Notes under the pieces: generated by a model | Databases searched by the model: none | What the model saw: only the letters and a program-made list of their open reading frames with translations | Told to the model about the DNA's origin: nothing | Source of the DNA: an uncultured Prolixibacteraceae bacterium | GTDB taxonomy: Bacteria; Bacteroidota; Bacteroidia; Bacteroidales; FEN-979 | Assembly: GCA_964449285.1 (NCBI GenBank) | Contig: CAYUZX010000003.1 | Span: forward strand, 942 to 64,941 | Direction of reading: 5' to 3' | DNA: 64,000 nt | Shown here: in pieces, positions 16,298 through 64,000 of the stretch | How positions within the stretch are numbered: the first letter of the stretch is position 1 | How the letters are laid out: every line of letters starts with the position of its first letter | Translations under genes and position numbers: made by a program

Positions 16298-16299
16298 GA

Positions 16300-23948: not shown

Positions 23949-23985
23949 AGAAGTTACTTCATTAAAAGATTATTATGACTGAATG

Positions 23986-25194: not shown

Positions 25195-25200
25195 ATGTCG

Positions 25201-26346: not shown

Positions 26347-26357
26347 AGAATCACTTA

Positions 26358-27617: not shown

Positions 27618-27622
27618 CTTTG

Positions 27623-28579: not shown

Positions 28580-28622
28580 ACCTATTTGGGATTTGATTGT
28601 TGGATTTTATCTTGTAATTTCA

Positions 28623-34577: not shown

Positions 34578-34583
34578 AACCAG

Positions 34584-36449: not shown

Positions 36450-36459
36450 ATTTGATGAA

Positions 36460-37941: not shown

Positions 37942-37953
37942 GATATAAGGCAC

Positions 37954-39336: not shown

Positions 39337-39364
39337 AATTCGGGCGCCAGATTATACTGGAAGA

Positions 39365-42061
39365 TCAAACCGTACTTCTTTCCCGGAAACGGAAAAGAAG
39401 TATTCTGGTAATCATACGTCGAAACTCTGATCTGGGTTTCGGGACTTCTCCGAAAACGGAATCCAGAAAATAGAGTTCCACTCCATTAAGAATGATCTGG
39501 GGCTCTTGTTTGCACAATGGTTTGAATGCATCCAGTAAAACGATGTCAGCCTCTTTCCAAGAACGGTTGGCTCTGACAACCAGAAGAGAGAGGTCGAACA
39601 TATGGGTAAATTCAATAGGATACGGGTGGTTAATCAGGGAAGGAATTTCGACGAAAATAAAATCGTATTCAGCTTGTTTGTAATCGTCAAACCCGGGGAT
39701 CAATTCCTCCAGATTCTGTGTCTCAAAATAGGTATTCCTAACTTCATACTGGATTTCAGCATCAGTAATTCCAGGCTGGGAAGGATCTTCAAAATAAGGA
39801 GAGGTGCTCTCAGGATCAACGTTATAGTAATTCAAATAAAGCACTTTTTCTCCGAAAGATTGCAGCTTGTTGCATAACTCCCGACCTACTGTCGTCTTTC
39901 CCTCAGCATCCAACATACTGAAAAAGAGTACCATTATTGGTTTTTGATTCTCCTCTTTTTTCTCTTTAATAGCTAATGAAACATTCTGAGCTAACATTTC
40001 TACCAGTCGCGGAACGATGAATTCCATATCAGCCGACTGCAATTTCCGTGTGATACGTGGATAGATACCGGCTACTTTCAGCTTTATTATTCTTTCAGCC
40101 CGTTCTATTGTTTTGATGGTTGTATCAAAGTACTCCATGGCGATGAGTATTGCAAGGATGAGGATCAATCCAATAAACCCTGCAATGATTACCAGGAACA
40201 TAGCTTTGGATTTCAGTGGTTTAAGTGGGAAATATGGCGGGTCAACCACTTTGATGTTAGTCGACATTTCATCATCCTGTTGCCGGAGTTTTGCCAGGTT
40301 GAGGTCATGGAGCAACTGTAGAAACTCACTTTCGGTTACTCCGATCAATCGCTCAATCCGTTTCATCTCTGCGCCTAAAGGAGCAAATATCTCATAGTAC
40401 CGTTGGAACTGCTTCCTTCTCTCTGTCAACACCCTGAAAGCTGCTTTACTCTCTTCGTAGGCGATGACATTTGTTAACCAGGCGTTCAGAAGGTCAGCTA
40501 CGGGAAGTCCCTCTACGCTATTGTTAATGATATAGAGTGCATCGAGGTGTGTTCTGATCTGCTTCTTGAGGTATTCAGCGTGAGACTTCAGGGATTCCAG
40601 TAGGTTGATGGTTGCCGAATCGTTTCCCAGATCAATTTCGATATTGACAATCTGCATCGTAACGGTCGCAAGTTCATTTCGAAGCTCGATGATTGCGTTG
40701 GTATTGAGTGTAAGTTTCGCGTGAGACTCAAGTTTTTTCTCTATGATTTTTATGGCTGCGTCGGCTGAAGCATAGGCAATCTGAGCATCGGAGTATTGCT
40801 GATCAAGCTCTTCCTTCATTCCCGCAATAGCCTTTGTTTGCTCGTAGTAGTTAATAATTTTATTTTTCTCATTGAAGGTCAAGAGGTCATATTCGGCTTT
40901 CTGCAGCCTTCTCATGGCTTCCTCAAGCTGACGTTTGAAATAGGCTACCACTGCATCGGTCTGATGCTGTCTGAGCTCTTTGTAACTCCGGATAAATACC
41001 TGAGTCAGGATGATCAGGGTTTGCTGGCAGATTCCCGGATCGGGATTGACGTACTGTATTGTTACCAGGTCACTATTCTGAATCCGTGTGACTGCAACCG
41101 CATTGAGGGCTTCAATACTGTAGAACTTGTTTTCGGAGCTCCAGAGTTTGTAGATATAGTTGTAATCATTGGAATTTCCGTAGTCCATCAATTCTCTGAC
41201 GCAACGTTCATAAGGTGTTGTTGTATCCCACAACTCCTGGTGAGTAGAGGGTTCTGTACTAATCCAGCGTTTGGTGATAAGCGGGGTTGTATCAACATCC
41301 CGTACATAGTCATCTCCATAGATTGTATCATATCCTGATTGTCTGGCTGGTGCTGGGTAGGGATAGTCCTCTGTTGAGGAGGGTGTATAATTATCGTTGA
41401 CCCGGATATGCTGTCCGGTGGCGAGCTCATAGGATTCGAGGTCATTCAGGCTCATCAAATCCTCGATACTTACCCTATATTTTTTCGCAATGGCATACAT
41501 GGTTTCCCCCCGACTAACAATGTGGTAATCTTGGGAGGTTTCATTGCGCGACTCAGTTTGGTACCCGGCATCCCTGACAGTTGGGGAGGCGGATGGATTC
41601 TGGTCGTTATTGTCATCAAAATAGGAGGTTTTTTGAGGAGGACGGTAATATTGTTGCTGCTGCTTTTGGTTTCGTTTGTATTTCCGGATGATCTGAACTA
41701 CATCTGGAGGCACTTCAGCCAGGAGTTCCTCATAATTATCTTGTTGGATGTACTTTGGGTCGTAGTGATCCAGCATTAAGTGCTGTACAAGTAACCGTAC
41801 CGAGACCTGCTCCATAGTACGTCTCGACTTGATCAGGTTTATAAGGTTGTCGTATGCTGTATTACTGGCGAAAAGATCCACACGAGTCTCCTGCTGTACT
41901 GAATATCCGGAGGTAATACCGGTATAAATCGTTGTCTCTGACTGGTAATTCCGTGCTTGTTTTCGGGTAAATAGATAGACAATTGCCGCAAGAAACAGGG
42001 GGACGAGTATGATCAATACGATATACCTTTGAAGTAATTTTATAAGGTGAATCAGTTTCAC
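39365..42061 (-). CDS. Polysaccharide co-polymerase (Wzz/GumC-like) with embedded LysM domain and divergent C-terminal BY-kinase-like domain
   Basis: TM1 at residues ~14-32, LysM (YHIVSRGETMYAIAKKYRVSIEDLMSLNDLESYELATGQHIRV, nt 41399-41527), a long coiled coil, then TM2. The P-loop is SMLDAEGKT and the Walker A'-like element is FIFVEIPS. The tail has no Tyr-rich cluster. The start codon is GTG. Confidence 0.75.
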   Translation of the reverse strand: MKLIHLIKLLQRYIVLIILVPLFLAAIVYLFTRKQARNYQSETTIYTGITSGYSVQQETRVDLFASNTAYDNLINLIKSRRTMEQVSVRLLVQHLMLDHYDPKYIQQDNYEELLAEVPPDVVQIIRKYKRNQKQQQQYYRPPQKTSYFDDNNDQNPSASPTVRDAGYQTESRNETSQDYHIVSRGETMYAIAKKYRVSIEDLMSLNDLESYELATGQHIRVNDNYTPSSTEDYPYPAPARQSGYDTIYGDDYVRDVDTTPLITKRWISTEPSTHQELWDTTTPYERCVRELMDYGNSNDYNYIYKLWSSENKFYSIEALNAVAVTRIQNSDLVTIQYVNPDPGICQQTLIILTQVFIRSYKELRQHQTDAVVAYFKRQLEEAMRRLQKAEYDLLTFNEKNKIINYYEQTKAIAGMKEELDQQYSDAQIAYASADAAIKIIEKKLESHAKLTLNTNAIIELRNELATVTMQIVNIEIDLGNDSATINLLESLKSHAEYLKKQIRTHLDALYIINNSVEGLPVADLLNAWLTNVIAYEESKAAFRVLTERRKQFQRYYEIFAPLGAEMKRIERLIGVTESEFLQLLHDLNLAKLRQQDDEMSTNIKVVDPPYFPLKPLKSKAMFLVIIAGFIGLILILAILIAMEYFDTTIKTIERAERIIKLKVAGIYPRITRKLQSADMEFIVPRLVEMLAQNVSLAIKEKKEENQKPIMVLFFSMLDAEGKTTVGRELCNKLQSFGEKVLYLNYYNVDPESTSPYFEDPSQPGITDAEIQYEVRNTYFETQNLEELIPGFDDYKQAEYDFIFVEIPSLINHPYPIEFTHMFDLSLLVVRANRSWKEADIVLLDAFKPLCKQEPQIILNGVELYFLDSVFGEVPKPRSEFRRMITRILLFRFRERSTV

Positions 42062-42828
42062 TACTCGATGTTGTTTATTACGTTAAATTTAATGCCTACA
42101 ATTTCCTGCAAGATCATATATGCATTGTAAAATTCGTTTCGGGATTGTTCAAAGTCAGTAACCGCTTTTCGGTTCATTTCGTTCAACCTGGCCAGTTCAT
42201 ATAAACTAAGTTGTCCGTTTAGGAACTCTTTCTCAGCTAAAGCCATCTGGAGCGACATGAAGATCTGGTTGTCATTGGCGATCTTTAATATTTTCTGATT
42301 GATGATCAGTCGATTATATTGTTCAATGATTCCCCTTCTGATCAGTTTGATCTGAACCTCCCGTTCTGAGAATGCCTGCTCCATGTATTTAGTTGCTGAT
42401 TTGACCCTGTTTCTATGATCCATCAGGTCATCAAGTGGCATCCGGACATTGATGCCAAGCAAATAGGCCTTGTTGTCCTGGGAGGTACTCACGTCGTTAG
42501 GAATTCCAACACTTACTTGCGTATTGGTGAAGCCATATAGTCTATCCAGACCCAATCCGGCATCCATATAGAAATTCTGCCAGATATCGCGGCGAGCCGT
42601 TTTGATGCCATACTTGCGGATGTAGATCTCAGCATCAACTGAGGCAACGCTGGGAGAGTGCACGATAGCTGAGTCGATCAGATCATCCAGTGGGGGAATC
42701 CGTAATGTGATATCATCAACGATAGGGTTAAAAACGAAGAGAGTATCCTTCGTCTGGCCAATTGTCGATAACGCTGTGGCAGTACAGATAATTAATAAAC
42801 CGATGATTTTAATTCTGATACCCTTCAC
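42061..42828 (-). CDS. Secreted coiled-coil protein resembling a single TolC/OEP repeat (half-size outer-membrane factor-like)
   Basis: Signal peptide, then LDDLIDSAIVHSPSV, as at the start of OEP repeats, then long helical segments. 255 aa is about half a TolC protomer. Confidence 0.4.
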   Translation of the reverse strand: MKGIRIKIIGLLIICTATALSTIGQTKDTLFVFNPIVDDITLRIPPLDDLIDSAIVHSPSVASVDAEIYIRKYGIKTARRDIWQNFYMDAGLGLDRLYGFTNTQVSVGIPNDVSTSQDNKAYLLGINVRMPLDDLMDHRNRVKSATKYMEQAFSEREVQIKLIRRGIIEQYNRLIINQKILKIANDNQIFMSLQMALAEKEFLNGQLSLYELARLNEMNRKAVTDFEQSRNEFYNAYMILQEIVGIKFNVINNIE

Positions 42829-42839: not shown

Positions 42840-44075
42840 TTATACATTTTCTTTCTGAAAGAGTGCTCCAAATGTTTTAAGAATGATCGCAACATCACCC
42901 CAGAATGAATGATGCTCTGCATAGTAGTTATCTATTGTAAATCGTTCTTCTTCAGACATAATACCCCCTTTCCCACGTTTTTTAATCTGCCATAACCCAG
43001 TCAGTCCGGCTGATGCTTTGAATCTCCTGCTCCATTTCTTTTTTGTAAGTGCTTCCGCTTCATTTAAAGGAAGAGGACGATTCCCAACAATTGACATATC
43101 TCCTTTTAGAACGTTGAACAGCTGCGGGAGCTCATCGATGCTGGTTCTCCGGATAACCTTACCCACCTTTGTGATTCGGGGGTCATCCACAATCTTTAAA
43201 AAAGCTTTACGGGCACTTTTTCGCTTGTTAGCCAGGCGCTCGCAAATTTCCTCGCCATCATAATAGACAATAGGAGAGCAGTGTTCTCCTTCCGGTAACT
43301 TGCCACATTCTGAACATGTTTTTTCGACAGTATGGGTAATGTATTGGTTAAGGTGAGCCACTTCTTTAAGCCGCTTATCGGCATCCGGGTACATGGAACG
43401 GAATTTGAAGAAGTTAAATATCTTATAATTTGCACCTACCCGTTTGGAGAAATAGTAGACTTTTCCTCGGGATTCAATACGGATTGCCAGCATCGTAATG
43501 AGGATAACCGGCGACAGGAGAATCAATGCAAACGAGGCGACCAGAACATCGAAACTTCTTTTCAGAACAGGTGTTTGGTAGGCTGATAAATCATTGTCAA
43601 TCAGGCTTTCAAGCGATTTTGGGACAAATTCGGCCTTGAATTTTTTTAGAAAAAGAGCCCTGTTGTAAATTCTCTCCGGGGTGAACCGGCAATGGTAGTA
43701 ATCGTCGACGCCTACATCCATTGCCTCTTCGCTGATATTTGTTTCAAAGCAAACAGCCAGAAGTATGAATGGAACCTTTGCATAGATGTTATGGAGTTTT
43801 AACTTCCGATAAAACGCAAGTCCTTTCATTCCAGGAATCTTTGTTTCGCAAAGGATAGCATCAATCATTTTTGTTTCACTATAAACAGGAGCCTGTTCGG
43901 CATCTTTGTCGAAATTAAATACCCTGAAGTTATGATCTGTCAGCCAATATATGGCTGACAGACCATTAGGCATAGTGGTAACATTGAAGAGGCCGCTTTC
44001 CTGTAAGGAGGTGATTGTGTCCTCATCATTTCCGATGTATAAAATGTCTAACGGTTGTCCCGGAGTCACCTCCAT
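42840..44075 (-). CDS. Priming phosphoglycosyl transferase (bacterial sugar transferase family) fused to an N-terminal pseudo-receiver domain
   Basis: C-terminal core KRSFDVLVA...KFRSM...[37 protein letters not shown]. The N-terminal ~150 aa has a REC-like fold, with Glu where the acceptor Asp is expected ([14 protein letters not shown]). Confidence 0.85.
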
Positions 44076-44081: not shown

Positions 44082-44480
44082 TTAGCCCATTCTTTGTTGT
44101 GAGTACAATTGTTTTGTTTCCAAACGACGTTTAATACGTACAAGTAGTTCGCGTGGGTTGAAGGGCTTTAAAACATAATCATCAGCTCCCATTTCAAAGC
44201 ATCTGATCTTATCAGCACTCTCTTCTTTCCCAGATAACATGATCAGAGGGATCTCCTCAAAAAAACCACTTTCACGAAGACGTCTGACAAATTCGATTCC
44301 ATTTAAAACCGGCATCTCCAGGTCACAAATGATCACATCTGGCATATTCCCGGACTGCAGGTAAAAAAGCGCATCCATCCCATTCGACATGGTGACCACG
44401 TCAAAATCTTTGTTAAATGTATTTTCAATGATGAAACGGATGCTCTTTTCATCATCAATCGCAAGGATCTTCTTCTTCAT
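44082..44480 (-). CDS. Single-domain (CheY-like) response regulator
   Basis: Canonical REC residues: AIDDE, VIICDLEMP, MLSG, LKPF. The ATG at 44478-44480 (MKKKILAIDD) is preferred over the longer track ORF. Confidence 0.9.
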   Translation of the reverse strand: MKKKILAIDDEKSIRFIIENTFNKDFDVVTMSNGMDALFYLQSGNMPDVIICDLEMPVLNGIEFVRRLRESGFFEEIPLIMLSGKEESADKIRCFEMGADDYVLKPFNPRELLVRIKRRLETKQLYSQQRMG

Positions 44481-44501
44481 GAAAGACCTTATTTTTGTAA
44501 G

Positions 44502-44509
44502 CAAATATA
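44502..44509 (-). promoter_or_regulatory. -7 box TATATTTG (minus strand) upstream of the response regulator / EPS initiation genes
   Basis: An exact TAnnTTTG match 21 nt upstream of the ATG at 44480. Confidence 0.4.
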
Positions 44510-44591
44510 TTGGAAATAAGATAAAATGCAGAAAATAGATATTAACAAATACCAAAAGTTATTGACCAAATTCGATAGCATCCAAAGGATG

Positions 44592-53822: not shown

Positions 53823-53872
53823 CTAAAAAGCGAAATGGTGAAAACAGCACCATTCATGTGCAATGAGTGACA

Positions 53873-53914
53873 ATAAAAAAAAGGCTGTCCAATTCCCGGG
53901 TCAGCCTCTTTTTT
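53873..53914. terminator. Bidirectional intrinsic terminator between convergent genes
   Basis: An A-run (53875-53882), a stem of AGGCTG (53882-53887) paired with CAGCCT (53902-53907) plus 2 further bp, and a T-run (53909-53914). Confidence 0.65.
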
Positions 53915-53929: not shown

Positions 53930-54562
53930 TTATTTTGCAATGGATTTACAGATGAATTTTCCAACGTTGTCACCGGCACGATCATAGCAGCTTTGAATCC
54001 GGCCTCCTGTATCAAAGTCATATCCCATCATGTTCACACTCTGAATATTCTTGTATTCACATGATCCGAGGATTTTATCAGGATTCGAGGTTTCAACAAG
54101 GTTGACGATCATGTTAATGTATGCATTCTTTCGTGTGACACCAACATTAAAACCGGGTTCTGTAAAGATAGTTTTGATGATCAGTGTGTACGCCGCATCA
54201 GCGCCCTCTTGACCGGAGATGCCGCATTTATCTGCAGTACCGTTGAAGTTTGTTTCAAACATCGGTTGGAACCTCGCTGAGCGGTCATTTACCCAGGCTT
54301 TAGCCCAAGTATCACCACTACCTGCCTCTTTTTTGTTCATGTCCGCGACACGCTTGTTTATATAATCCGACTCTTTTTTGAACTTCCCTACAACCATATT
54401 GGAGTAATCATACTGGAGGTTAACGGCGGTTTGCCCTTTCAACGCTCCAAAACTGCCAGATTTTAGTTTCTGTGCAAAGAGGGATCCACCGATAGTTATA
54501 AAAACACCAACTAATAGCATTAAGACAATTCGTTTCATAAGCTTGCATGTTAGGTTAAACAT
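53930..54562 (-). CDS. Secreted hypothetical protein
   Basis: Signal peptide (MKRIVLMLLVGVFITIGGSLFAQ; alternative ATG at 54538). I recognise no family. A TAATTTTG box lies on the minus strand at 54579-54586. Confidence 0.5.
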   Translation of the reverse strand: MFNLTCKLMKRIVLMLLVGVFITIGGSLFAQKLKSGSFGALKGQTAVNLQYDYSNMVVGKFKKESDYINKRVADMNKKEAGSGDTWAKAWVNDRSARFQPMFETNFNGTADKCGISGQEGADAAYTLIIKTIFTEPGFNVGVTRKNAYINMIVNLVETSNPDKILGSCEYKNIQSVNMMGYDFDTGGRIQSCYDRAGDNVGKFICKSIAK

Positions 54563-54626: not shown

Positions 54627-55931
54627 CTATTTTCCCCGGTTGTCAATAAATTTCACTGATTTCCTGATGAACTCAGGGAATTGTATATCATGAATCTCAT
54701 CAACTGAATGAAAAACAATCTGTGGTGCCACCCGGAGTTTAGCCCTGAAATGATCTTTGATATCCTTCTCCCGATGGCTGATCGGCAGCTTGCTCCCAGC
54801 GTGGATTACAATCTCATCGGTACCGATCTGATTGGTTGATACCTCTACCACGTAGTTATCAACATACTCAATGCTATCAAGAATGTCATAAAGAGACGGG
54901 GGATAAAGGGTGGTCCCTTTGTATTTTATCATCTGGTTTTTACGTCCAACAACAGGCCCTAGTCGCAAGGTAGTTCTTCCGCAGGAGCATGGTTCAGTAT
55001 AATGGGAGCATATATCTCCTGTTTTGAATCGCAGCAAAGGCATCCCTTCTACACCAAGAGGCGTTATCGTGACTTCTCCAGGTTCACCTTCTTTAACTGG
55101 CTGATCGTCTTCGTCAAGAAACTCTACGATGATCAGTTCAGGATGATGATGACCTCCAGTTCCGGCGCTACATTCTGCGAAAGATGTTGCCATCTCAGTG
55201 GAGGCGTAAGTGGAATATAACTTCAGGGGCCACTTCTCCAGGATCTTCCTTGCTAACGTGTTGTTTGAGAGGTCCTGGTTTCGTAATGGTTCGCCAATAC
55301 AAATAGCTTTTCTGACAGAGCTGGATCGATAATCAATTCCTTGTTCCTCTGCATACTCAATGACTTTGAGAATGAAACTGGGAACTGCAACAATCGTATC
55401 CGGTGCAACCCGGTGAATGGTATCCCACTGCAATTCAGGGATTCCATTCCCTACCCTTACAATACTTGCTCCCATACGGCGAATCCCGAGGAAGTAAGCA
55501 AGGCCGGCCATGAACCGGCGGTCAATGGTGGTCATAAGCTGGAAAATCTCTCCAGGATGCCCATCGGCACAGGTGAAAGAGATGGCCTCATTGTATGCAA
55601 GTCGATCCAGATCCTTTTCAGTCGTGGCAAAGGTCACCGGATCTCCCTGCGTTCCAGAAGTAGTGATATAGTCTACAATTTTTTCCTTCCCGACGCAGAT
55701 AAAGTCTTCATTCTGCCGCTGCAAGTCCTCCTTTGTGGTTACAGGAATGCCAACTAAATCGCTGATTCCCGATATCTTTTTGATGTCGATCTTCTTTTCT
55801 GCAAAAAGATGTTTGTAGAAGGGAGAGAAAGTGTTGAGATACTGGAGAAGTTCCTGGATCTTTGCATCCTGGAATCGCTTGATCTCCTTACCTGGCCGGG
55901 TCTCGATGTCGGGAAAAAACGGTGATGTCAT
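54627..55931 (-). CDS. Phenylacetate-CoA ligase (PaaK) / coenzyme F390 synthetase-like adenylate-forming enzyme
   Basis: The 434-aa size and the motifs TTSGTQGDPV and YASTE are typical of PaaK-like ANL enzymes. Confidence 0.8.
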   Translation of the reverse strand: MTSPFFPDIETRPGKEIKRFQDAKIQELLQYLNTFSPFYKHLFAEKKIDIKKISGISDLVGIPVTTKEDLQRQNEDFICVGKEKIVDYITTSGTQGDPVTFATTEKDLDRLAYNEAISFTCADGHPGEIFQLMTTIDRRFMAGLAYFLGIRRMGASIVRVGNGIPELQWDTIHRVAPDTIVAVPSFILKVIEYAEEQGIDYRSSSVRKAICIGEPLRNQDLSNNTLARKILEKWPLKLYSTYASTEMATSFAECSAGTGGHHHPELIIVEFLDEDDQPVKEGEPGEVTITPLGVEGMPLLRFKTGDICSHYTEPCSCGRTTLRLGPVVGRKNQMIKYKGTTLYPPSLYDILDSIEYVDNYVVEVSTNQIGTDEIVIHAGSKLPISHREKDIKDHFRAKLRVAPQIVFHSVDEIHDIQFPEFIRKSVKFIDNRGK

Positions 55932-55932
55932 C

Positions 55933-56628
55933 TTAGAATTTAAAGCCTAGTAATACCCGGAATGTGGAGATATCTATATCGTGAATCGGTCGTGCATTGT
56001 CAAAATCATTATAGTTGATGGTTCCAACGGTATAGTGGAACCCTACGAGAAATAACCTGTACCTAATATTCATCATTAATTCTTGTCCGGTGATGTGGTA
56101 TCCCCAGTCACTATTATGCCAGCTGACGTTGAAGTTCAGTTTGTAACTCAGATCGATCATCAGCCTGTCAATAGGATTTACTGTGATTAGGGGGCCAAAT
56201 TTTTGTCCAAAGAAGTAGTACCAGAATTCTGTCTCTTTTTTGTTGCTATTTGCTGGAAGATTTGGCTTGGATGTTGCAAACCAACCATCGATAAAGCACG
56301 CGTCGATACCGAATCTCAGATAGTTATTAACGATAGCAGGCCCTATATAGATCAGGTATCCCAGGCCAAGGTTCCCTCCGATCCTGGCTGCTGGAAAAAC
56401 CGATACGTCAGGAGAAAACGGGGGCAGATCAATGATGGTCTTATCCGTGGCAAAAGTTCCCAAAGGAAATACCGGTCCAATTTTTAGGTAAAACCCGCTC
56501 TTGATTAGATTCGGCTTAGCAAAGCTTTTAGTCTTTGAACTGGATTGCGTATCTTCCTGATTCTGAGATAATGCAATCCCGCAGGTTAATATCAGGAGGG
56601 TCGTTAAAAAGAATATATAGCGATTCAT
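55933..56628 (-). CDS. Outer-membrane beta-barrel protein (hypothetical)
   Basis: Signal peptide, alternating hydrophobic beta-strand pattern, and a C-terminal LLGFKF with terminal Phe (OMP beta-signal). Confidence 0.6.
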   Translation of the reverse strand: MNRYIFFLTTLLILTCGIALSQNQEDTQSSSKTKSFAKPNLIKSGFYLKIGPVFPLGTFATDKTIIDLPPFSPDVSVFPAARIGGNLGLGYLIYIGPAIVNNYLRFGIDACFIDGWFATSKPNLPANSNKKETEFWYYFFGQKFGPLITVNPIDRLMIDLSYKLNFNVSWHNSDWGYHITGQELMMNIRYRLFLVGFHYTVGTINYNDFDNARPIHDIDISTFRVLLGFKF

Positions 56629-56668
56629 AACTATAAAGTTTCAAGTTTGTATCGTAAAATTACACATT

Positions 56669-57748
56669 TTAACTGTACCTGTAACGTTCCATATATTTTC
56701 TCATGATGTTTGCAATCACTTTTTTCTCCTTGTCAGATAAGGAAAACACATTCTTTTTGTAACCTGAAGTTGAAGTAATATATTTATTTAACGAGTTTTC
56801 AAAACTTTCAGTAAAGGGCAAATTCATTTTCTGGTATAGGGCTCGCAAGGATGATATTGGGTTCTGCTCAAGATCTTCATACCTGATCTCCACAAATCGT
56901 ACATCAGATAGTTGAGTGAAATCATTCGAAATGGTGTTCGACAGATGCGATAAGAATATCGAAATTTCCTCAATAGTAGGAATATAGCCATTTTTATTAA
57001 GGATATTTTGCTTCTGCACTACCCTCCAGAGGTGCTGGGTTGAAGGAACAACTGCATAAGGGTGTCTAACGATGTGGATGAACCGTGCTTCAGGAAAAAG
57101 ATCGGCAAGAAGCTGAATTCGCAGTGAATTGAAAGGGTTCTTGGATATGATCCGTTTGCCAGTTGTAAAACAAATTTTTCTGTAAAAATCCATAAGTCTG
57201 GACTTCCATTGATCCAACAAGTCACCATCGGGGAGGAAATGGGTGTCGTTGACGAAGTAGGTCTTTTTTGACGGGAAGATGAGTTTTTCAAGAGGCGACC
57301 GGGTTGTAAGCCTGAATATAGAATATTCGTCTTCCTGAGGTTCGTCCATACCGATCTTCACATTGTCCATCGGTCGTGAAGAGCCCATTAACATCCTGAA
57401 TATAGGCTTATAAAAACGATAGGAAACAAGGAAATTTTCAGGTAAAGCCACTTGAAAAAGGGTAGGCGCAGCCAGTCCCGGATCCTGAGCCATCAGTTGG
57501 TGGAGTAGGGTAGAGCCAGTTCGCCAATGGCCGACGATGAAAATCGGGTCACGGGGAACCGGTGTGTTCTCAATGATTTTCCCATATTTCACTATTTCTA
57601 TTCTGGAAAAAAGTGAAGACCAGCAGGAACTCTGGAGCAGAAAAATTACACGGGCAATGTTTCGAGGTGTCCAGGTAATAGGATTACGCGAAAGTAGGCG
57701 TATCAGAGGACTGAAACGAATACCTGCAATAAGGTAAGAATTTTTCAA
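56669..57748 (-). CDS. Sulfotransferase family protein
   Basis: 5'-PSB loop IVGHWRTGSTLLHQL and a 3'-PB-like RIISKNPFNSLR. Confidence 0.8.
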   Translation of the reverse strand: MKNSYLIAGIRFSPLIRLLSRNPITWTPRNIARVIFLLQSSCWSSLFSRIEIVKYGKIIENTPVPRDPIFIVGHWRTGSTLLHQLMAQDPGLAAPTLFQVALPENFLVSYRFYKPIFRMLMGSSRPMDNVKIGMDEPQEDEYSIFRLTTRSPLEKLIFPSKKTYFVNDTHFLPDGDLLDQWKSRLMDFYRKICFTTGKRIISKNPFNSLRIQLLADLFPEARFIHIVRHPYAVVPSTQHLWRVVQKQNILNKNGYIPTIEEISIFLSHLSNTISNDFTQLSDVRFVEIRYEDLEQNPISSLRALYQKMNLPFTESFENSLNKYITSTSGYKKNVFSLSDKEKKVIANIMRKYMERYRYS

Positions 57749-58026
57749 GAGTTGACTGTTTCGCTTGCAATAAAATCTGCAATACTGTTGATTGACTGAA
57801 TGATATTTCGAGCCAGGTTTTGGTCGTTCAATCTGACATTGTACTTTCTTTGCAGTGCCATGATGATCTCAATCCCGTCAACTGAGTCGAGTGTCAGGGC
57901 ATTAGTGCCACCAAAAAGGGGTTCGGTGTCATCCACGTCATTTGGGTCTACATCGGTTATGTTGAGGGTTGATATGATCAGATTTTTGATCTCCAGTTTC
58001 AGTTCATCGCTCGGTTCGCTTGACAT
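57745..58026 (-). CDS. Acyl carrier protein (free-standing)
   Basis: 93 aa. Phosphopantetheine attachment context LTLDSVDGIEIIMAL. The stop overlaps the sulfotransferase start (ATGA). Confidence 0.85.
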   Translation of the reverse strand: MSSEPSDELKLEIKNLIISTLNITDVDPNDVDDTEPLFGGTNALTLDSVDGIEIIMALQRKYNVRLNDQNLARNIIQSINSIADFIASETVNS

Positions 58027-58035
58027 ATTAATTTG

Positions 58036-59043
58036 CTATTTTATACTCTTTTTTAATTTTTTAAAGAATTTTTCTTCTACTTCAGCACGGTCCATTATCA
58101 GGTCGCTCAATTCTTTCATCTTACCGGCACCAAGGTCCCTGTTTTTTCCGATCCGTGCCGCGAAAAGGGAGATCTCTCTCCATCCGTCACCAATGGTCAT
58201 CAGTTCAGTGGAAAGCTCCTTCAACTCAGGGTTATTAACTATCTCAGAGGCCTGCTGAAGAAATGTCGCATACATAAACCTAAATCCTGCCCCACCTGTT
58301 CCTTGGTCCTCCAGGAGGATATTGATCTTCATCACCTCGTGAGATAGGTGTTCACTGTCCCTGGCAAACTTTGGCCAGTCGACCACTCGTTTTGCAAAGA
58401 GCCGGATTCCCTTGATTCCGATAAAAGGAACCGGAAGTTTAAGCATGTTGAAACAGGCTTTATCTATCCCTTTAAGGATTGGCTTCCTGAGGTCAACTTC
58501 AGAGGGAACGTATTTTGGATAGAAAAGAAATCCTTTTGGTGACATGTTTCCACCTGCAAACCTGCCTCTTCTGAGCGACTCCTCATTCACCCGTTCAGGT
58601 TTTGGGAAATAGCTGTCGCTTACGATATACGCTGAACCCTCTTTACCGATTACCACCATGAAATGGACATTGATATGAGCCCGTTCCCAACTCGGGACGT
58701 AATCCATATAGTAGAAATCGACCTGTGAAGCAACAGGTATTCCCTGGCTGAGGAGTTCGTTAAGCTTCTCAATCCCATCCTGCTCTTTCTTGAATGAGAA
58801 TGTCTGAAACTTTACGCCCAGACGTTTCTGGATATTCTTTCTGATATCGCCAGGACGGCTCCTGACGATGAACGTGGGAAAAGTAAATGATTTATGCTTA
58901 TGGAAATAGCCGAAAAAGATACCGCTGGCGATACCGAATACCATTGGTTCCGAGATTGTCAGCCCGGCATGATTCAACAGTGACGTAACGGTGCCGGACT
59001 CACAGTGGGCACCCATTTTATGATTGTAATGTATCGGAGTCAT
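58036..59043 (-). CDS. BtrH N-terminal domain / DUF4872 protein (BtrH-like ACP-dependent transferase)
   Basis: The N-terminus GAHCESGTVTSLLNHAGLTISEPMVFGIASGIFFGYF matches the BtrH_N signature with its Cys nucleophile. Confidence 0.7.
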   Translation of the reverse strand: MTPIHYNHKMGAHCESGTVTSLLNHAGLTISEPMVFGIASGIFFGYFHKHKSFTFPTFIVRSRPGDIRKNIQKRLGVKFQTFSFKKEQDGIEKLNELLSQGIPVASQVDFYYMDYVPSWERAHINVHFMVVIGKEGSAYIVSDSYFPKPERVNEESLRRGRFAGGNMSPKGFLFYPKYVPSEVDLRKPILKGIDKACFNMLKLPVPFIGIKGIRLFAKRVVDWPKFARDSEHLSHEVMKINILLEDQGTGGAGFRFMYATFLQQASEIVNNPELKELSTELMTIGDGWREISLFAARIGKNRDLGAGKMKELSDLIMDRAEVEEKFFKKLKKSIK

Positions 59044-59459
59044 AGTTTAGCAGGTTCATCGTTCAGCAGTTCCGTCGTGGGAATAGCCTTTTTTAGCTGT
59101 TCAGCCGTGATGTTAAAGACGGTTGCATACCGCTGCAGTAATTCTTCTGAGAGTTTTACAAAGTGAGGAGGGAGGAGGTGTTTCTTTATGTTCCGCATCG
59201 GGATCCGTGTCCTGGCCGAAAGTTCCTTGAGAGTCAGATCTTCCAGGATCATAAAAAACTTCACAGGGCTGATTTCATCCCGGTTGATCTGGTCCCGGAG
59301 TGAAGTGACCAGGTTATTCCGTTTATCGAAATAATCATCAATGTAGTTTTTCGTGATAAATGAGCCAGTTTGCATGGGGCCAAATTGTCCGTCCTCCTTT
59401 TCCACATAAAGGATCATCTGCTGCTCGGGACAATCGACAAATCCCTCTTTCTCTTTCAT
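59040..59459 (-). CDS. Small hypothetical protein with XRE-like helix-turn-helix
   Basis: The ATG at 59457-59459 (MKEKEGF) is preferred, because the longer track ORF overlaps the upstream permease. HTH-like segment LTLKELSARTRIPMRNIKKHL. Confidence 0.45.
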   Translation of the reverse strand: MKEKEGFVDCPEQQMILYVEKEDGQFGPMQTGSFITKNYIDDYFDKRNNLVTSLRDQINRDEISPVKFFMILEDLTLKELSARTRIPMRNIKKHLLPPHFVKLSEELLQRYATVFNITAEQLKKAIPTTELLNDEPAKL

Positions 59460-59472
59460 AATCTCTTTGGCA

Positions 59473-60639
59473 TTAATTCCGTTTTGCAAAAATAAGCATG
59501 CTGACAAGCAATGCAAAGATAAAAAACAAAAGCAACCAGAGGGCTCCGGGGAGGATATCAACCAGGGTTCCATCCCGGATAAACAACTCGAGGTAGTTGT
59601 CTATTCCCCAGCGTATTGGAGAGATGCTGCTGATAAATTGTATCGCTTTTGGCATCACGTGGATAGGGAGAAACGTACCACTGATGATGCCCAGGATCAC
59701 CACCATCACAGATCCAAAGAGGGCTGCCTGGCCGTGGTTACGTGAACCAGCGCCAACCAGGAGTCCGAACCCGACTGCCCCAAGAGATGCCGTTATTGTT
59801 GCAACGGATATGGCAAAAAAACTACTTCCCATCTCCAGCTTCGGGAAGTTAAACAAAAGATGCAGCATATAGTACCCGACAAACAGCATCAGCAGGAACT
59901 GAACAATGCATACCAGAAGATACAAAATGACTTTCGCGACCAACATTGTCGATATTGGAACAGGTAATGTTCGGATCCTGAAACTTGCACCTTCGTTCTT
60001 TTCACTGATCACACTTCCAGATAAGGGTATGACGATGAAGAACATAGCAAAAAGGATGAACCCCGGGATGTTGTTCTGTACGGGAGTAGGTTTGATGGAG
60101 GAGCGTTCTTTTATCGCCTGTTGCTGATAAATTGGTGGCAGCATCTTCAACATATCGTCAGCGGGAAGCGTTGTTGCATAAGGCTGACTGGCAGTCATTA
60201 ACTGTTGCATGATCACTTTTCCGCTTGCTCCTTTAAGAATGAACATTGCAGCGGTGACAAGGGTGCTTTTATAGGCTTCATGGAGTGTGGGGTCGACCAC
60301 AAGAGTGATCGCTGTATCGCCAGGAGCCACCAGAACCCCGAGAGGGACCTCTCCTTTCCTTATGGCATTATAGAGCTCTTCCTGTCCGATTGAGTCTGAG
60401 ACCACCCTAAACATCCCTGAAGCCTTAATGTCGCTGCTTATCTGTTCTCCAAGAACAGATCCGGGGGGGGTGACGATAAGAATGGAGCTTTTTGCCACCT
60501 GGCTCTTCAGCGTATTCTCCTGGGCTAGTGTAACAACAAGAATCAACAGGAGGGGCATCAAGAACAGAATGCTGAGACCAGGGATATCCCGGACAAGTAT
60601 AAGCCACTCTTTCCGCAATGCCGCAAGAAGTTTTTGCAT
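59473..60639 (-). CDS. ABC-2 type transporter permease
   Basis: The ATG at 60637-60639 (MQKLLAALRKEWLILVRD) is preferred. One N-terminal TM helix, a large loop, and 5 C-terminal TM helices. No ATPase gene is adjacent. Confidence 0.75.
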   Translation of the reverse strand: MQKLLAALRKEWLILVRDIPGLSILFLMPLLLILVVTLAQENTLKSQVAKSSILIVTPPGSVLGEQISSDIKASGMFRVVSDSIGQEELYNAIRKGEVPLGVLVAPGDTAITLVVDPTLHEAYKSTLVTAAMFILKGASGKVIMQQLMTASQPYATTLPADDMLKMLPPIYQQQAIKERSSIKPTPVQNNIPGFILFAMFFIVIPLSGSVISEKNEGASFRIRTLPVPISTMLVAKVILYLLVCIVQFLLMLFVGYYMLHLLFNFPKLEMGSSFFAISVATITASLGAVGFGLLVGAGSRNHGQAALFGSVMVVILGIISGTFLPIHVMPKAIQFISSISPIRWGIDNYLELFIRDGTLVDILPGALWLLLFFIFALLVSMLIFAKRN

Positions 60640-60649
60640 GGGGACAAAG

Positions 60650-61753
60650 TTAACTATTCCGGCGTGCTTCGAGAACAGAAAGCGGAGCAATTGTTGAGTA
60701 TTGTCGGTAAAGCGAGAGACCTGCCTGATGAAGTAATGATACAAACTCCTCTTTCGTTCGCTCTTTTCCTCCAGGCATTGAAGTAAGCATCTGGATATCA
60801 ATCATCTTGGCAGCAGAAGGCTTGTTTCCCGGAGGTATGATCATCTCAACGATGATGATCTTCCCGTTCGCCGGCATTACGTTGTGGATATTGGAGAGGA
60901 TTGTAATGCAGGTTGAGTCGTTCCAGTTATGCAGGATATTCTTCAACAGGTATCCATCAGCACCTTCCGGAATCGAATCAAGAAAGTTCCCCTCTGTTAT
61001 CGTTACTCTCTCTTTCATACCATATTGCTTCATTGTTTCTTCTGCTTTTTCGAGTGCAGCAGGCATGTCAAATAGGATGCCCCGTATGGCTGGGTAAGTT
61101 CGCAGGATATTGGCTAACAGGAAACCCTCTCCGCCACCAATATCCACCAATGTTGTAATGGTTGAGAAGTTATAGCCCTGAAGCAGAGGCGCCAGCCCAA
61201 GGGAGGAGAGATCTGACATCGATTGATCAAAAATCGCATAGTTGCTGGGATCTTCGCTGAGATAACTATAGATGTTCTTGTGATATCTCCTGTTGAACCC
61301 ATCTTCTCCAGTCCGAACAGTCTCCAATAACTCACCGGTGATTTGCCAGTTCAGCGAGCCAAGGTGGTGTCTGAGCATGTGGCGTAACGACCCATCTCCA
61401 TCCATTAAGGGTTTGGATAACCTGGTATTGGAGAAATTCCGGGCACTATCCTCATGAAAAATGTTATTGGATGCCAGGGCCCTCATCACCCGATATAGGC
61501 TTTCAGTGTCTGAGCCCGACTCTCTTGCAAGTTGTATTATCGGTTTTTCACTCTCTTTTAGCAAACCGGCTATGTTTAGTTCAGCTGCTACATAGAGAGA
61601 TGGGAGCAGATAATAGTATTGGAATTTCTCATACAGTACGACATTTCCCGGAAACATCCTGTCGTGGATGTTCATTAGCACTGCCCTGAAGCCCTGGATG
61701 GTTTTTACAATCCATCGTGGTGGCAGAGATTGTTTTTGTGACTTATGTTTCAT
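60650..61753 (-). CDS. Class I SAM-dependent O-methyltransferase (Methyltransf_2 with N-terminal dimerisation/wHTH domain)
   Basis: SAM motif LVDIGGGEGFLL, with the small-molecule OMT layout (LKNILHNWND). Confidence 0.85.
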   Translation of the reverse strand: MKHKSQKQSLPPRWIVKTIQGFRAVLMNIHDRMFPGNVVLYEKFQYYYLLPSLYVAAELNIAGLLKESEKPIIQLARESGSDTESLYRVMRALASNNIFHEDSARNFSNTRLSKPLMDGDGSLRHMLRHHLGSLNWQITGELLETVRTGEDGFNRRYHKNIYSYLSEDPSNYAIFDQSMSDLSSLGLAPLLQGYNFSTITTLVDIGGGEGFLLANILRTYPAIRGILFDMPAALEKAEETMKQYGMKERVTITEGNFLDSIPEGADGYLLKNILHNWNDSTCITILSNIHNVMPANGKIIIVEMIIPPGNKPSAAKMIDIQMLTSMPGGKERTKEEFVSLLHQAGLSLYRQYSTIAPLSVLEARRNS

Positions 61754-62633
61754 CGTTCATTGCCACTTCAGGTGATGGCGTAAACTTCCACCGGTTATGA
61801 GACCATAGGTAGAACCGGGGATCTTCTTTGATGTTGTCCTCCAGCGCCTTAAAATATCGCGTAGTGAGATCCGGAATCATATCAACCTCTCCAGGCTTGT
61901 TAAGGGGGCGGAATTCCACTTCATAAAAGCCACGTTTAATTTTCCGGTTATGAACATAAAGAACGACCCCTTTTGTCTTTCTATGCAAGTTGTCAAGGCC
62001 ACGGAAAGCGGCGGTAGGCTGGTTCAAAAAGTTCACCCATGGAACTTTTGCATTTTTTGCAGGGCGTTGATCGGCAGCAAAATAGAGGCAAAGTGGTGCT
62101 GTTTCCTGATTATTAAGTAAGTATTTGTAGGCATCATGGTACTGGTAGAGAAGGAGTCCGTATTTCCCTCTGGAATGAAGGATCAGGTCATCAACAAATT
62201 TATTGGATTGTTCTTTGTAAATGGCCACACACGTGAAATTGATTTTAAGCACCAGGTAAGAGACCCACTCCCAGTTGCCGTAATGGCCTGGGGCCAGGAT
62301 TACGTTAACCCCTTCACTGGCATATTTATCCAGGATCTCCAGGTTAGTCAGCTTGTACCGAGCGTCAAAATCGCTGATTTTCATATGGAAATTTGCTACT
62401 GCCTCCACCAGGTAATCGGCCAGGTGTTTATAAAACTCTCGTTTAATATACTTAAGTTCAGTTTTCGATTTCTCAGGGAATGCATTCCGGAGATTTTCAC
62501 ATACGACTTCTTTTCTATACCCCAGGATGTAATTCATGATGAAGTAAACAAACGTAGATATCCCGTAGAAGAACCGGAATGGCATGATGGTCAGGAATAA
62601 AATCATCAGACGTATCGAGAGACGCATGCGCAT
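61743..62633 (-). CDS. Lysophospholipid/LpxL-HtrB family acyltransferase
   Basis: HX4(D/E) motif PGHYGNWEW and an N-terminal TM helix. The ATG at 62631-62633 is preferred over the TTG at 62666. Confidence 0.8.
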   Translation of the reverse strand: MRMRLSIRLMILFLTIMPFRFFYGISTFVYFIMNYILGYRKEVVCENLRNAFPEKSKTELKYIKREFYKHLADYLVEAVANFHMKISDFDARYKLTNLEILDKYASEGVNVILAPGHYGNWEWVSYLVLKINFTCVAIYKEQSNKFVDDLILHSRGKYGLLLYQYHDAYKYLLNNQETAPLCLYFAADQRPAKNAKVPWVNFLNQPTAAFRGLDNLHRKTKGVVLYVHNRKIKRGFYEVEFRPLNKPGEVDMIPDLTTRYFKALEDNIKEDPRFYLWSHNRWKFTPSPEVAMNDET

Positions 62634-62666
62634 GAAATCTTTGGGACAAAGGTAACACTTACACAA

Positions 62667-62701
62667 GAATGACGGATTACGAATGATGAATTACGAACGA
62701 T
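62667..62701. repeat. Degenerate heptamer tandem array x5 (GAATGAC GGATTAC GAATGAT GAATTAC GAACGAT)
   Basis: Read directly from the sequence. It fills the 40-nt spacer inside the ACP operon. Confidence 0.85.
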
Positions 62702-62706
62702 TTTTA

Positions 62707-63531
62707 TCATTGCAACCTGTCAACTATCAACTGCTGACTTACCTGCATAATCAGGCAGCTGGGGCCACCAGTTCCCTTAACAAATTCAGAGAGACTCAGG
62801 GGATAGACCGTGAATCCTTTGTGCCGAAGAGCCTCGATGGAAGCGGTATTTGATTGATCTGCAATAATCTGTCGATTGGATAGAGGGATAACATTTCCGC
62901 TGATGAATCCCGTGTTTCGAACTTCGATCCGGTGAAAACCCGTAAAAAAGATTTTCGGAAAGAGACCGTTAACACACAGTATGGTATCAGGTGATACCAG
63001 CGTTATAGCTCCACCTAAATGGAGAAAAGGAGCGGGGACCTTTGCTGTCCTGGTTTCATATCCTGCCTTCTTTAAAAAATTAATAAGCTGCTCGATTCCC
63101 GCTGGATTTGTCCTTGATGAGTGTCCAATGAATGCAATGTCGTCCGTTAGAATAACATCTCCGCCTTCAACTTTTCCAGGTGCTTCAATAGCCCCGAAAC
63201 ATGAAACTCCAATCTTGTCCAGGGATTCGGCCATCCACTTCTCTTCGCCTTCACGGGAAGGGAGGCCCATTCTCACCCTGATGTATCCTTTTGGTGTACA
63301 AACCGCAGTATCTTTTGTAAACACTGAATTGGGATGTCCCTGCATCTCCTTGAGTTCGATCACCTTAGCTCCGGCTTTTTCAATTGTTTTTACAAGACTA
63401 ATATGCTGCTTTGCGGCCAGTCCCGGATCAGAAATTTGTGTGATATTATGTTCTGCCAGGTTTGATGCCCCGAAATAAGATGGGCCTGGAGAGCAAGTGA
63501 TTAGGGTAGAGGGTTGATGGTTGAGGTTCAA
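62707..63531 (-). CDS. Dimethylarginine dimethylaminohydrolase / amidinotransferase-fold (guanidino-group modifying) enzyme
   Basis: VFTKDTA, EGGDVIL, GHSSRTN, LHLGG and a C-terminal catalytic-Cys context GTGGPSCLIM. Confidence 0.8.
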   Translation of the reverse strand: MNLNHQPSTLITCSPGPSYFGASNLAEHNITQISDPGLAAKQHISLVKTIEKAGAKVIELKEMQGHPNSVFTKDTAVCTPKGYIRVRMGLPSREGEEKWMAESLDKIGVSCFGAIEAPGKVEGGDVILTDDIAFIGHSSRTNPAGIEQLINFLKKAGYETRTAKVPAPFLHLGGAITLVSPDTILCVNGLFPKIFFTGFHRIEVRNTGFISGNVIPLSNRQIIADQSNTASIEALRHKGFTVYPLSLSEFVKGTGGPSCLIMQVSQQLIVDRLQ

Positions 63532-63593: not shown

Positions 63594-63614
63594 ATCTAGC
63601 ATCCAGCATCTAGT
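63594..63614. repeat. Degenerate heptamer tandem array x3 (ATCTAGC ATCCAGC ATCTAGT)
   Basis: Read directly from the sequence. It overlaps the stop codon (63610-63612) of the upstream gene. Confidence 0.7.
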
Positions 63615-64000
63615 TTGCCAGCATCTCCATTCCCAAACTTTCTGCCAGTTTGTCGGCCTCTTCTATTGCTTCTTCTTTGGATTTGCATTTCATTACCTCG
63701 ACCCTCGATTGGAGAGTTCCTGCTTCCAGGACAACCCGATAATCTTCCTGTTTTGTTTCCATCGTCCGGTTGCTGAGGCTGAAAGTCCTGTAAAAGCGTT
63801 TGGTACGAACAACCCTTATTCCGTGAAAAGAGTTAGTACTAATCCATTGACCCGATCTAAAGAGACCAAGAATTAGGTTGCAAGGGCGAATGAGTCGTTT
63901 AACGGTATCAATTTCACAGGCATTTCCAGAGAATCCGATAAAGGCACCGATCAAGATCAGGATGATACCCGTCCAGTAAAACGGAATCAGGATAATACCT
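63610..64000 (-). CDS. Hypothetical membrane-anchored protein; 5' end beyond the window
   Basis: The frame stays open to nt 64000 (..GIILIPFYWTGIILILIGAFIGFSGN..), so the track's internal Met is not the true start. I recognise no family. Confidence 0.5.
   Translation of the reverse strand, partial: GIILIPFYWTGIILILIGAFIGFSGNACEIDTVKRLIRPCNLILGLFRSGQWISTNSFHGIRVVRTKRFYRTFSLSNRTMETKQEDYRVVLEAGTLQSRVEVMKCKSKEEAIEEADKLAESLGMEMLAN

Follow-up and report, generated by a model that had tools for sequence, protein, structure and literature searches.

Flexirubin-type pigments are a chemotaxonomic hallmark of the Bacteroidota. To our knowledge, no biochemistry has been assigned to the DarG, DarH, acyl carrier protein (ACP) and ABC-2 permease genes that are found beside the genes for these pigments. 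Here we describe an ACP-centred operon that contains such a gene set, located on the minus strand between positions 54,627 and 63,531 of a 64,000-nucleotide stretch of DNA (the window) from an uncultured Prolixibacteraceae bacterium (contig CAYUZX010000003.1, positions 942 to 64,941). Among the closest known systems are the flexirubin loci of Chitinophaga pinensis (flxA-flxY together with darA-darJ) and Flavobacterium johnsoniae (Schoner et al. 2014, PMC3992019), and on balance we favour the view that the operon derives from a flexirubin-like (aryl-polyene/dialkylresorcinol-type) locus for an envelope lipid and has no ketosynthase (KS).

In vitro, the FlxY of C. pinensis acts as a 4-coumarate-CoA ligase (PMC3992019), and in the same organism darG, darH and genes for an ABC ATPase, a permease and an ACP accompany darA and darB (PMC12968099). 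Like the flexirubin loci, the window operon encodes a FlxY-type ligase, DarH, a DarG-like protein, a DarC-like free ACP and a DarJ-like ABC-2 permease; in canonical loci its 210-aa secreted protein has a homologue near FlxT, and in its relatives the block is contiguous with FlxT, FlxU, FlxV and FlxW. Unlike those loci, it has no DarB-like gene, tyrosine ammonia-lyase, KS, ketoreductase (KR), dehydratase (DH), FlxT-W or ABC ATPase within reach (DarA was not among the queries), and it adds a Stf/CurM-like sulfotransferase, a COMT-type O-methyltransferase (OMT) distinct from FlxJ, an LpxL-family acyltransferase and an enzyme with the fold of dimethylarginine dimethylaminohydrolase (DDAH). The hosts differ as well, being uncultured, probably anaerobic Bacteroidales represented by metagenome-assembled genomes (MAGs) rather than the aerobic Flavobacteriia and Chitinophagia of the flexirubin loci.

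A second point of reference is given by the aryl-polyene (ape) clusters of Escherichia coli CFT073 and Xenorhabdus doucetiae, where attachment to lipid involves an acyl-ACP synthetase, ACPs, a methyltransferase and a lysophospholipid acyltransferase (PMC8253772; bioRxiv 10.1101/2020.12.19.423268). ApeH loads 4-hydroxybenzoate directly onto ACP (PMC8253772), and ApeD transfers the acyl group to a lipid acceptor during lipid assembly (PMC8253772; bioRxiv 10.1101/2020.12.19.423268). The window operon shares this functional set for starting and anchoring, with counterparts to the activating enzyme ApeH, the free ACPs, the methyltransferase ApeB, the lysophospholipid-type acyltransferase ApeD and the exported accessory protein ApeA, and with outer-membrane localisation. 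It differs in having no ApeC, ApeO or ApeR ketosynthases, no ApeQ reductase, no ApeI or ApeP dehydratases, no ApeK thioesterase, no LolA/LolB-like proteins and no resistance-nodulation-division (RND) pump, whereas the ape clusters have neither the BtrH-like protein nor the sulfotransferase of the operon.

Flexirubin-type proteins encoded by the operon

Two of the predicted proteins pass the equivalog cut-offs of flexirubin families in NCBIfam. The last gene of the ten (54627..55931, minus strand like the rest of the operon) encodes a predicted PaaK-like aryl-acid adenylating ligase of 434 aa that scores 707 bits against FlxY_rubin (NF053551, cut-off 520) and is 48-63% identical to the FlxY proteins adjoining FlxW in canonical flexirubin loci. 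The product of 58036..59043 (335 aa) scores 331 bits against DarH_acyl (NF053550, cut-off 300). This predicted BtrH-related acyltransferase carries the Pfam domains BtrH_N (PF14399, 133 bits) and DUF4872 (151 bits), and its residues H13-C14-E15 and H123/N125/H127 are invariant among 18 homologues. Nine nucleotides downstream of DarH lies the free-standing ACP (57745..58026, 93 aa; Pfam PP-binding, 27 bits), with its serine in the motif LDSVD and an NCBIfam PRK09184 score of 58 bits, below the cut-off of 70. The pairing of a BtrH_N protein with a free-standing ACP recalls butirosin BtrH/BtrI, where transfer of the acyl group to an amine is ACP-dependent; unlike BtrH, however, DarH has a C-terminal DUF4872 domain and constitutes a separate equivalog, and the operon has no aminoglycoside genes. 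A comparison of DarH with the sulfate-eliminating, aziridine-forming proteins AziU3/Azi29, a relation that would have tied DarH to the sulfotransferase by mechanism, gave no significant similarity (E 0.06 with a single sequence, 0.3 with an 18-sequence profile).

The small protein encoded immediately upstream of DarH (59040..59459, 139 aa), previously described as XRE-like, had no Pfam match, even at loose thresholds, and falls instead in the DarG family, just under the cut-off of DarG_fam (62.4 bits, cut-off 70; flexirubin_DarG gave 65.9 bits against a cut-off of 170). A single-sequence AlphaFold model of it was unusable (mean confidence, pLDDT, 46). The genes for DarG and DarH are separated by -4 to +4 nt in 49 of 54 loci. 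None of the ten operon proteins matches DarA or DarB in NCBIfam. With FlxY and DarH above their equivalog cut-offs and a DarG-like protein between DarH and the permease, the combination is, by family membership, assignable to a known pathway type. The first-pass annotation had judged that it could be assigned to no characterised pathway, a statement that these scores, together with the synteny described below, overturn; the operon should be labelled flexirubin-like.

Conservation and two architectures of the locus

DarH was used to scan species-representative genomes, which yielded 61 loci (individual loci are cited by L numbers), all in MAGs of Bacteroidales, Prolixibacteraceae or Draconibacterium-like bacteria, including three Rikenellaceae and one genome labelled Spirochaetota. 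Across these species-level loci the same order recurs: OMT, ABC-2 permease, DarG, DarH, ACP, then optionally the sulfotransferase, a 231-aa protein, FlxY and the 210-aa protein. Co-localisation in related genomes, which the first-pass annotation had proposed to check, is thus conserved, with gene spacing as tight as in the window, and the arrangement is far beyond chance. In genomes of the Prolixibacteraceae type the block lies beside the same amidohydrolase, DUF6580 and mutL genes. In the 44 OMT-carrying loci with coverage of the downstream part, the OMT always keeps its position; 25 of them have the 231-aa protein and 38 have FlxY.

Two architectures are found upstream of the OMT. In a wider clade, with DarH 62-72% identical to that of the window, the OMT is preceded by FlxV (amine-oxidase/desaturase family), FlxW (a C45/AAT Ntn-hydrolase), a B12-binding radical S-adenosylmethionine (radical-SAM) enzyme and a 128-aa protein, for which loose Pfam and NCBIfam searches found nothing credible. 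Often two large outer-membrane-type proteins are also encoded, and FlxT (GT2-DUF2062) and FlxU (a 1291-aa MMPL-acyltransferase-methyltransferase) lie farther upstream. Most of the 61 loci have FlxT-W and radical-SAM genes before the block. Relatives whose DarH is 68-70% identical carry the same block at the same chromosomal site, where it forms the 3' part of a flexirubin-like locus. A locus recovered in a metagenome scan with FlxU (L068, from the same organism as L048) extends 10 kb farther upstream and there encodes a hydroxyacyl-CoA-dehydrogenase-like protein, a FabF-like KS (458 bits), an ACP, an acyltransferase and two further B12 radical-SAM enzymes; we refer to this architecture as KS-linked. 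The canonical order, as seen in 80 metagenome loci centred on FlxU, is FlxT-FlxU-FlxV-FlxW-FlxY-(lyase-KR-KS). Because FlxW directly precedes FlxY there, the block from the OMT to the 231-aa protein represents an insertion between FlxW and FlxY in a scaffold of flexirubin type.

In the second architecture, that of the window and its near clade, a hypothetical gene, sometimes the DDAH-fold gene, and the LpxL-family gene stand directly before the OMT. The parent locus is conserved in Prolixibacteraceae-like Bacteroidales beside amidohydrolase-DUF6580-mutL, and in the clade of the window its FlxT-W/chain-building half has been replaced by an LpxL-family acyltransferase. FlxY, the ACP, DarH, DarG, the COMT-type OMT, the Stf/CurM-like sulfotransferase, the ABC-2 permease and the putative outer-membrane and secreted proteins have been kept. 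Within the flexirubin/aryl-polyene cluster family, a KS-less operon bearing a sulfotransferase is new.

Several distant loci show further arrangements. L059 and L061 (300-15700) each contain two divergent DarG-DarH pairs, the first with ammonia-lyase, KR, KS, LpxL-like, radical-SAM and ABC ATPase genes, the second with an ACP, a sulfotransferase, a radical-SAM enzyme, a second ACP, a phosphopantetheinyl transferase and an acyltransferase; in L059 the DarG-DarH-ACP-sulfotransferase module is thereby linked to a lyase, a KR, a KS and another LpxL-like gene. In the three Rikenellaceae MAGs (L054-L056, 15694-19093) the same module stands beside a DarB/StlD-like ketosynthase III (110 bits, under the cut-off), two crotonase-family enzymes, an AcpS-type phosphopantetheinyl transferase and a YbgC-type thioesterase, a chain-building chemistry that differs from that of the Prolixibacteraceae loci. 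The locus labelled Spirochaetota (L066, 7381-11333) has the order ABC ATPase-ABC2-DarG-DarH-ACP with DarH 57% identical, and its placement could be due to horizontal transfer or a binning error. L068 has three B12-binding radical-SAM genes in all (4332-7111 and 15528-16799) within a flexirubin-like locus of a probably anaerobic Bacteroidales MAG. One of them is 92% conserved among relatives, far above its neighbours, and these enzymes might replace steps of the aerobic pathway without requiring oxygen.

Search for chain-building genes

The window together with 13 near-clade loci (272 kb in total) was searched by tblastn with three kinds of KS, acyltransferase (AT), ammonia-lyase, KR, FlxT-W, radical-SAM and DarB/StlD-like queries; DarA was not among them. 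There were no matches to KS, AT, lyase, KR, FlxT-W, radical-SAM or DarB-like queries, and FlxT, FlxU, FlxV and FlxW are absent from the window and the near clade. The KS and KR queries likewise found no thiolase-fold or short-chain dehydrogenase/reductase match in the 272 kb that would indicate ApeO/ApeC/ApeR or ApeQ-type genes. No KS, KR, DH or ammonia-lyase gene is present in the 10 kb that follow the window, nor among the window's 30 other open reading frames (ORFs) that were scanned for protein families. The earlier observation that the window has no ketosynthase thus holds, and extends to DarB-like and ammonia-lyase genes and to the 10 kb beyond nt 64000, again without a DarA query. The first-pass annotation had also considered that such genes immediately upstream would make the operon the tail of an ordinary flexirubin or aryl-polyene locus; in these 10 kb none was found.

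Tailoring, transfer and export genes

The LpxL/HtrB-superfamily acyltransferase (61743..62633, 294-296 aa, motif HYGNWE; Pfam Lip_A_acyltrans, 99 bits) falls below every NCBIfam lipid A equivalog cut-off, the best score being 102 against 248 bits. Its homologues at 74, 70, 62, 58 and 45% identity are all encoded immediately before OMT-(ABC2)-DarG-DarH, and the genes farther upstream of them differ between loci. Outside the cassette it is closest, at 33-40% identity, to ordinary Bacteroidota proteins of the LpxL family. Since this place at the head of the cassette is retained in every homologue down to 45% identity, sequence comparison identifies the gene as a true member, and the first conserved gene, of the KS-less cassette; this rules out a mere housekeeping neighbour. 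The OMT that follows (60650..61753, 367 aa; Methyltransf_2, 169 bits, plus Dimerisation) is a COMT-type small-molecule enzyme scoring only 35 bits against FlxJ (cut-off 560).

The PAPS (3'-phosphoadenosine-5'-phosphosulfate)-type sulfotransferase (56669..57748, 359 aa; Pfam Sulfotransfer_3, 115 bits) has an invariant PAPS loop (G73, H74, W75, R76, G78) and invariant R228, P230 and S236. It is encoded in 34 of the 44 loci (77%), and no homologue is found in the 80 canonical FlxU-centred loci. No paper joining 'flexirubin' and 'sulfotransferase' was found in the literature searched. This distribution points to sulfated envelope lipids that are new to the pathway family.

The ABC-2 type permease (59473..60639, 388 aa; Pfam ABC2_membrane_3 and ABC2_membrane) is DarJ-like. 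An ABC ATPase gene adjoins it only in the distant loci L057, L059, L061 and L066; canonical dar clusters encode the ATPase next to the permease. Between the sulfotransferase and FlxY lies the gene for the 231-aa protein (55933..56628), which carries a signal peptide. At its C-terminus (...FRVLLGFKF) hydrophobic residues alternate and the last residue is Phe. These features would fit a small outer-membrane beta-barrel, a possible identity that had previously been given as a plain label. No Pfam or NCBIfam family was found for it, loose searches included, and its single-sequence AlphaFold model was unusable (pLDDT 34). The secreted 210-aa protein (53930..54562) has a type I signal peptide without a lipobox cysteine and follows FlxY in most loci. 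It too had no Pfam or NCBIfam match, also in loose searches, but 11 canonical loci have a homologue (34-46% identity), which in six of them lies just upstream of FlxT.

The cassette genes are under purifying selection. In pairwise comparisons of the window with five sister species dN/dS was 0.03-0.16 for every gene (0.03-0.05 for DarH, 0.03-0.10 for LpxL and 0.05-0.07 for FlxY) compared with 0.05 for mutL, values that are rough since dS is saturated.

Proposed pathway

The ACP-centred logic put forward in the first-pass annotation (adenylating enzyme, free ACP, BtrH-like transferase, O-methylation, sulfation and delivery to the envelope) is a reasonable reading of the families. In the derived flexirubin-like locus that we favour, FlxY would adenylate an aryl or arylpropenoic acid, by analogy 4-coumarate, and the acyl group would pass to CoA or straight to the ACP, with no polyene extension. 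DarH, with its Cys/His active site and BtrH-like fold, and/or the LpxL-like enzyme may then move the ACP-bound acyl group to a hydroxylated lipid acceptor. The OMT could cap a phenol and the sulfotransferase could sulfate a remaining hydroxyl from PAPS, after which the permease, the putative outer-membrane protein and the secreted protein would place the product in the envelope. In sister lineages that have no FlxY, the ACP would be charged by an unlinked enzyme. The product is probably a sulfated envelope lipid.

Several points weigh against this pathway. Even among flexirubin producers DarG and DarH have no proven roles, and FlxY alone among the cassette genes has a biochemically characterised close relative. 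The COMT-type OMT implies a phenolic substrate, for which relatives without FlxY have no evident source. No ATPase partner for the permease was found in the window or the near-clade loci, the outer-membrane and secreted roles are based on signal peptides only, and saturation of dS makes the estimate of constraint a rough one. Finally, the search covered the window, 10 kb beyond it and the near-clade loci, and chain-extension genes may be present elsewhere in the genome.

Alternative explanations

The last of these points leads to a split cluster, in which KS, KR, DH, lyase, FlxT-W and possibly DarA/DarB genes elsewhere in the genome would complete a flexirubin-like pathway with a sulfated product, the operon being its tailoring and esterification half. 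This has a precedent, as the flx and dar genes of C. pinensis form two separate, cooperating loci (PMC3992019). The cassette alone, moreover, has no obvious route for building an acyl chain, and FlxY is retained in the window under constraint. We nevertheless regard this explanation as a tentative one, because no such genes were found in the 64-kb window, the 10 kb beyond it or the 13 near-clade loci, and because of the pattern of FlxY loss. FlxY is absent from eight loci (L007, L010, L012, L013, L014, L053, L155 and L156), all of LpxL type or in its near clade, and from no KS-linked locus, which would be unexpected if a polyketide half were in use. In L010, beta-propeller/PQQ (pyrroloquinoline quinone)-like genes stand in its place. 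Some relatives have FlxY and others, just as close, do not, which points to more than one loss. The aryl-starter step may thus have become dispensable once the chain-building half was gone, and this argues modestly against a simple relocation of that half.

Alternatively, the LpxL-headed cassette might be a self-sufficient pathway, free of polyketide synthases, to an undescribed sulfated, O-methylated aryl-acyl (or acyl) outer-membrane lipid of anaerobic Bacteroidales; in a variant, the ACP-coupled sulfotransferase would install a leaving group on a carrier-bound intermediate that DarH resolves. We consider this unlikely. Either version, if true, would provide the first biochemical role for the DarG/DarH pair of all flexirubin loci. 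DarG, DarH, the ACP and the ABC-2 permease are conserved and under selection in 13 LpxL-headed loci without a nearby KS or dialkylresorcinol genes, and these loci offer a stripped-down system for a direct functional test of DarG and DarH.

The sulfotransferase could also be an activating enzyme of the kind found in CurM and olefin synthase, in which case a sulfated hydroxyl on the ACP-bound chain would serve as leaving group, and off-loading with elimination by DarH or another enzyme would yield an alkene-bearing lipid. The ACP and sulfotransferase genes are translationally coupled through a TTGA overlap and lie no more than 39 nt apart in 34 of 37 loci, and the sulfotransferase domains of CurM (4GBM, 1.4e-11) and olefin synthase (4GOX, 1.3e-10) are among the four closest solved structures to a profile of 14 homologues. 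By this profile search the operon enzyme falls in the same PAPS-sulfotransferase subgroup as these four, whose substrates are lipids or ACP-bound. The best matches of that profile, however, are the mycobacterial lipid sulfotransferases 2Z6V (1.7e-18) and 2ZQ5 (7e-15), of Stf3 type, which decorate a product, and the Joint Genome Institute (JGI) names the homologues after the Stf3 sulfomenaquinone enzyme. The operon enzyme differs from the Stf, CurM and olefin-synthase enzymes in being free-standing, coupled to a separate ACP gene and set in a flexirubin-like context without a thioesterase partner. The cassette encodes no thioesterase at all, ten loci do without the sulfotransferase, and the similarity of DarH to AziU3 is not significant (E 0.06-0.3). 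An activating role is therefore quite doubtful, and decoration of a lipid hydroxyl is our default reading for the sulfotransferase.

The model of the first-pass annotation amounts to a novel, non-flexirubin pathway to a sulfated, methylated lipo-amino acid: the ACP would carry an acid, to be passed on to an acceptor with an amino or guanidino group, and the DDAH-fold enzyme would process this acceptor. BtrH itself does acylate an amine, and the gene for the DDAH-fold enzyme (62707..63531, 274 aa; Pfam ADI and DDAH_eukar), a predicted guanidino-group hydrolase, is co-oriented with the operon, 79 nt upstream of LpxL. The protein aligns over its full length with the DDAH of Pseudomonas aeruginosa (3RHY and 1H70, E 1e-24 to 2e-23), with the catalytic Cys (GGPSC), His (LHLG) and Glu (VEGGD) positions conserved, but it reaches only 113 bits against the NCBIfam dimethylargininase equivalog (cut-off 340). 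Its link to the cassette is confined to one small clade: the gene occurs in five of the 44 OMT-carrying loci, all in the nearest clade, and is absent from L013, L014 and L152-L156. Homologues at 48-55% identity lie in unrelated contexts in Bacteroidota, Anoxybacter and others, including other phyla. This distribution marks the gene as a recent lineage-specific add-on that is probably not part of the core pathway. The idea of an amino or guanidino acceptor came from this gene, and because of its restriction to the nearest clade and the unrelated contexts of its homologues, the sulfated lipo-amino-acid product is without specific support. Instead, synteny and the assignment of its proteins to FlxY, DarH and DarG connect the block with flexirubin-type loci, making the proposal very improbable.

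A decaying, non-functional remnant of a flexirubin-like cluster left by deletion of its polyketide half, as might be suspected from the loss of the upstream half relative to relatives, the loss of FlxY from several sister lineages and a fragmented 231-aa gene in L155, is hardly credible given that every ORF of the window operon is intact, that dN/dS across five sister species is similar to that of mutL and that the LpxL-headed cassette is kept down to 45% identity in different genomic settings.

Operon structure and boundaries

All ten minus-strand genes were found in the ORF list of the window at the coordinates originally given for them. Pfam searches bore out eight of the ten family calls (ADI/DDAH, Lip_A_acyltrans, Methyltransf_2, ABC2_membrane, BtrH_N with DUF4872, PP-binding, Sulfotransfer_3 and AMP-binding), the exceptions being the XRE-like and outer-membrane barrel labels discussed above. 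The motifs quoted for them, HYGNWE, DIGGGEG, LDSVD, GHWRTGST and GGPSC, are all present in the translations. There were no public database names for these exact proteins.

Gene calls on public contigs 100% identical to the window (L001-L006) correct three start positions. The ABC-2 permease starts at 60639 (388 aa) rather than at 60801, the start of the longest ORF, which would overlap the OMT by 152 nt; the DarG-like protein starts at 59459 (139 aa), and the LpxL-like protein at 62627 or 62633 (294 or 296 aa). With these starts the junctions range from -11 to +79 nt, the largest being that between the DDAH-fold and LpxL genes with the 62627 start. The operon is tightly packed. Of three overlaps reported earlier, the ATGA at 59040-59043 and the 11-nt overlap of the LpxL-like gene with the start of the OMT (61743-61753) are present as described, and that at 57745-57748 reads TTGA, not ATGA, the ACP stop codon overlying a TTG start of the sulfotransferase.

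The unit probably comprises 11-12 genes, with one gene added at either end. At its head is a hypothetical gene for a protein of 154-162 aa, the 3' part of which lies at 63610..64000 on the minus strand, with its start beyond the window at about nt 64074-64098 (calls on L001 and L002). It is conserved before the cassette in the near clade (44-70% identity) and in L155 and L156, has no Pfam or NCBIfam match and shows no similarity to the 128-aa protein of the KS-linked loci. The unit probably ends with the 210-aa gene, which no terminator-like site separates from FlxY and which is followed by two terminator-like hairpins (53833..53906, minus strand): one at 53855-53833, found by a terminator scan, and one read directly from the sequence, GGCTGACCCGGGAATTGGACAGCC followed by T8, at about 53906-53875. 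A scan for sigma-70 promoters was uninformative (14 sites compared with 18 in shuffled sequence). The Bacteroidetes motif TAnnTTTG closely precedes both LpxL (62654) and the 210-aa gene (TAATTTTG at 54586), a weak signal given that its 7 occurrences in 10 kb are only about 3 times the number expected by chance.

Beyond nt 64000, the 154-162-aa gene is followed by genes for a glutaredoxin, Cpn10, an RND efflux system and a TetR protein. On the downstream side, the 210-aa gene is followed by an amidohydrolase gene on the other strand, a DUF6580 gene, mutL and uvrB.

Other features of the window

Two long glycan/exopolysaccharide operons occupy 14960-30487 and 33438-42828 on the minus strand. They encode two adjacent hybrid histidine kinases, an asparagine-synthase-like amidotransferase, several GT2 and GT4 glycosyltransferases, a NodU-like carbamoyltransferase, a Wzy-like polymerase and an 898-aa chain-length determinant with a LysM-like N-terminus. 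At 42840-44075 (minus strand) a polyprenyl glycosylphosphotransferase (TIGR03025, 236 bits), the enzyme that initiates exopolysaccharide synthesis, also matches a PhoB-type receiver domain over residues 43-139. Fusion of a receiver domain to an initiating transferase would be an unusual mode of regulation. Immediately upstream, 44082-44555 encodes a separate response regulator. On the plus strand, 3780-14951 is a type IX secretion neighbourhood with a PorP/SprF gene at 10927-11868, whose flanking genes encode a subtilase, a 1028-aa protein and others that carry Por_Secre_tail or CHU_C sorting domains, which is consistent with an origin in the Bacteroidota.

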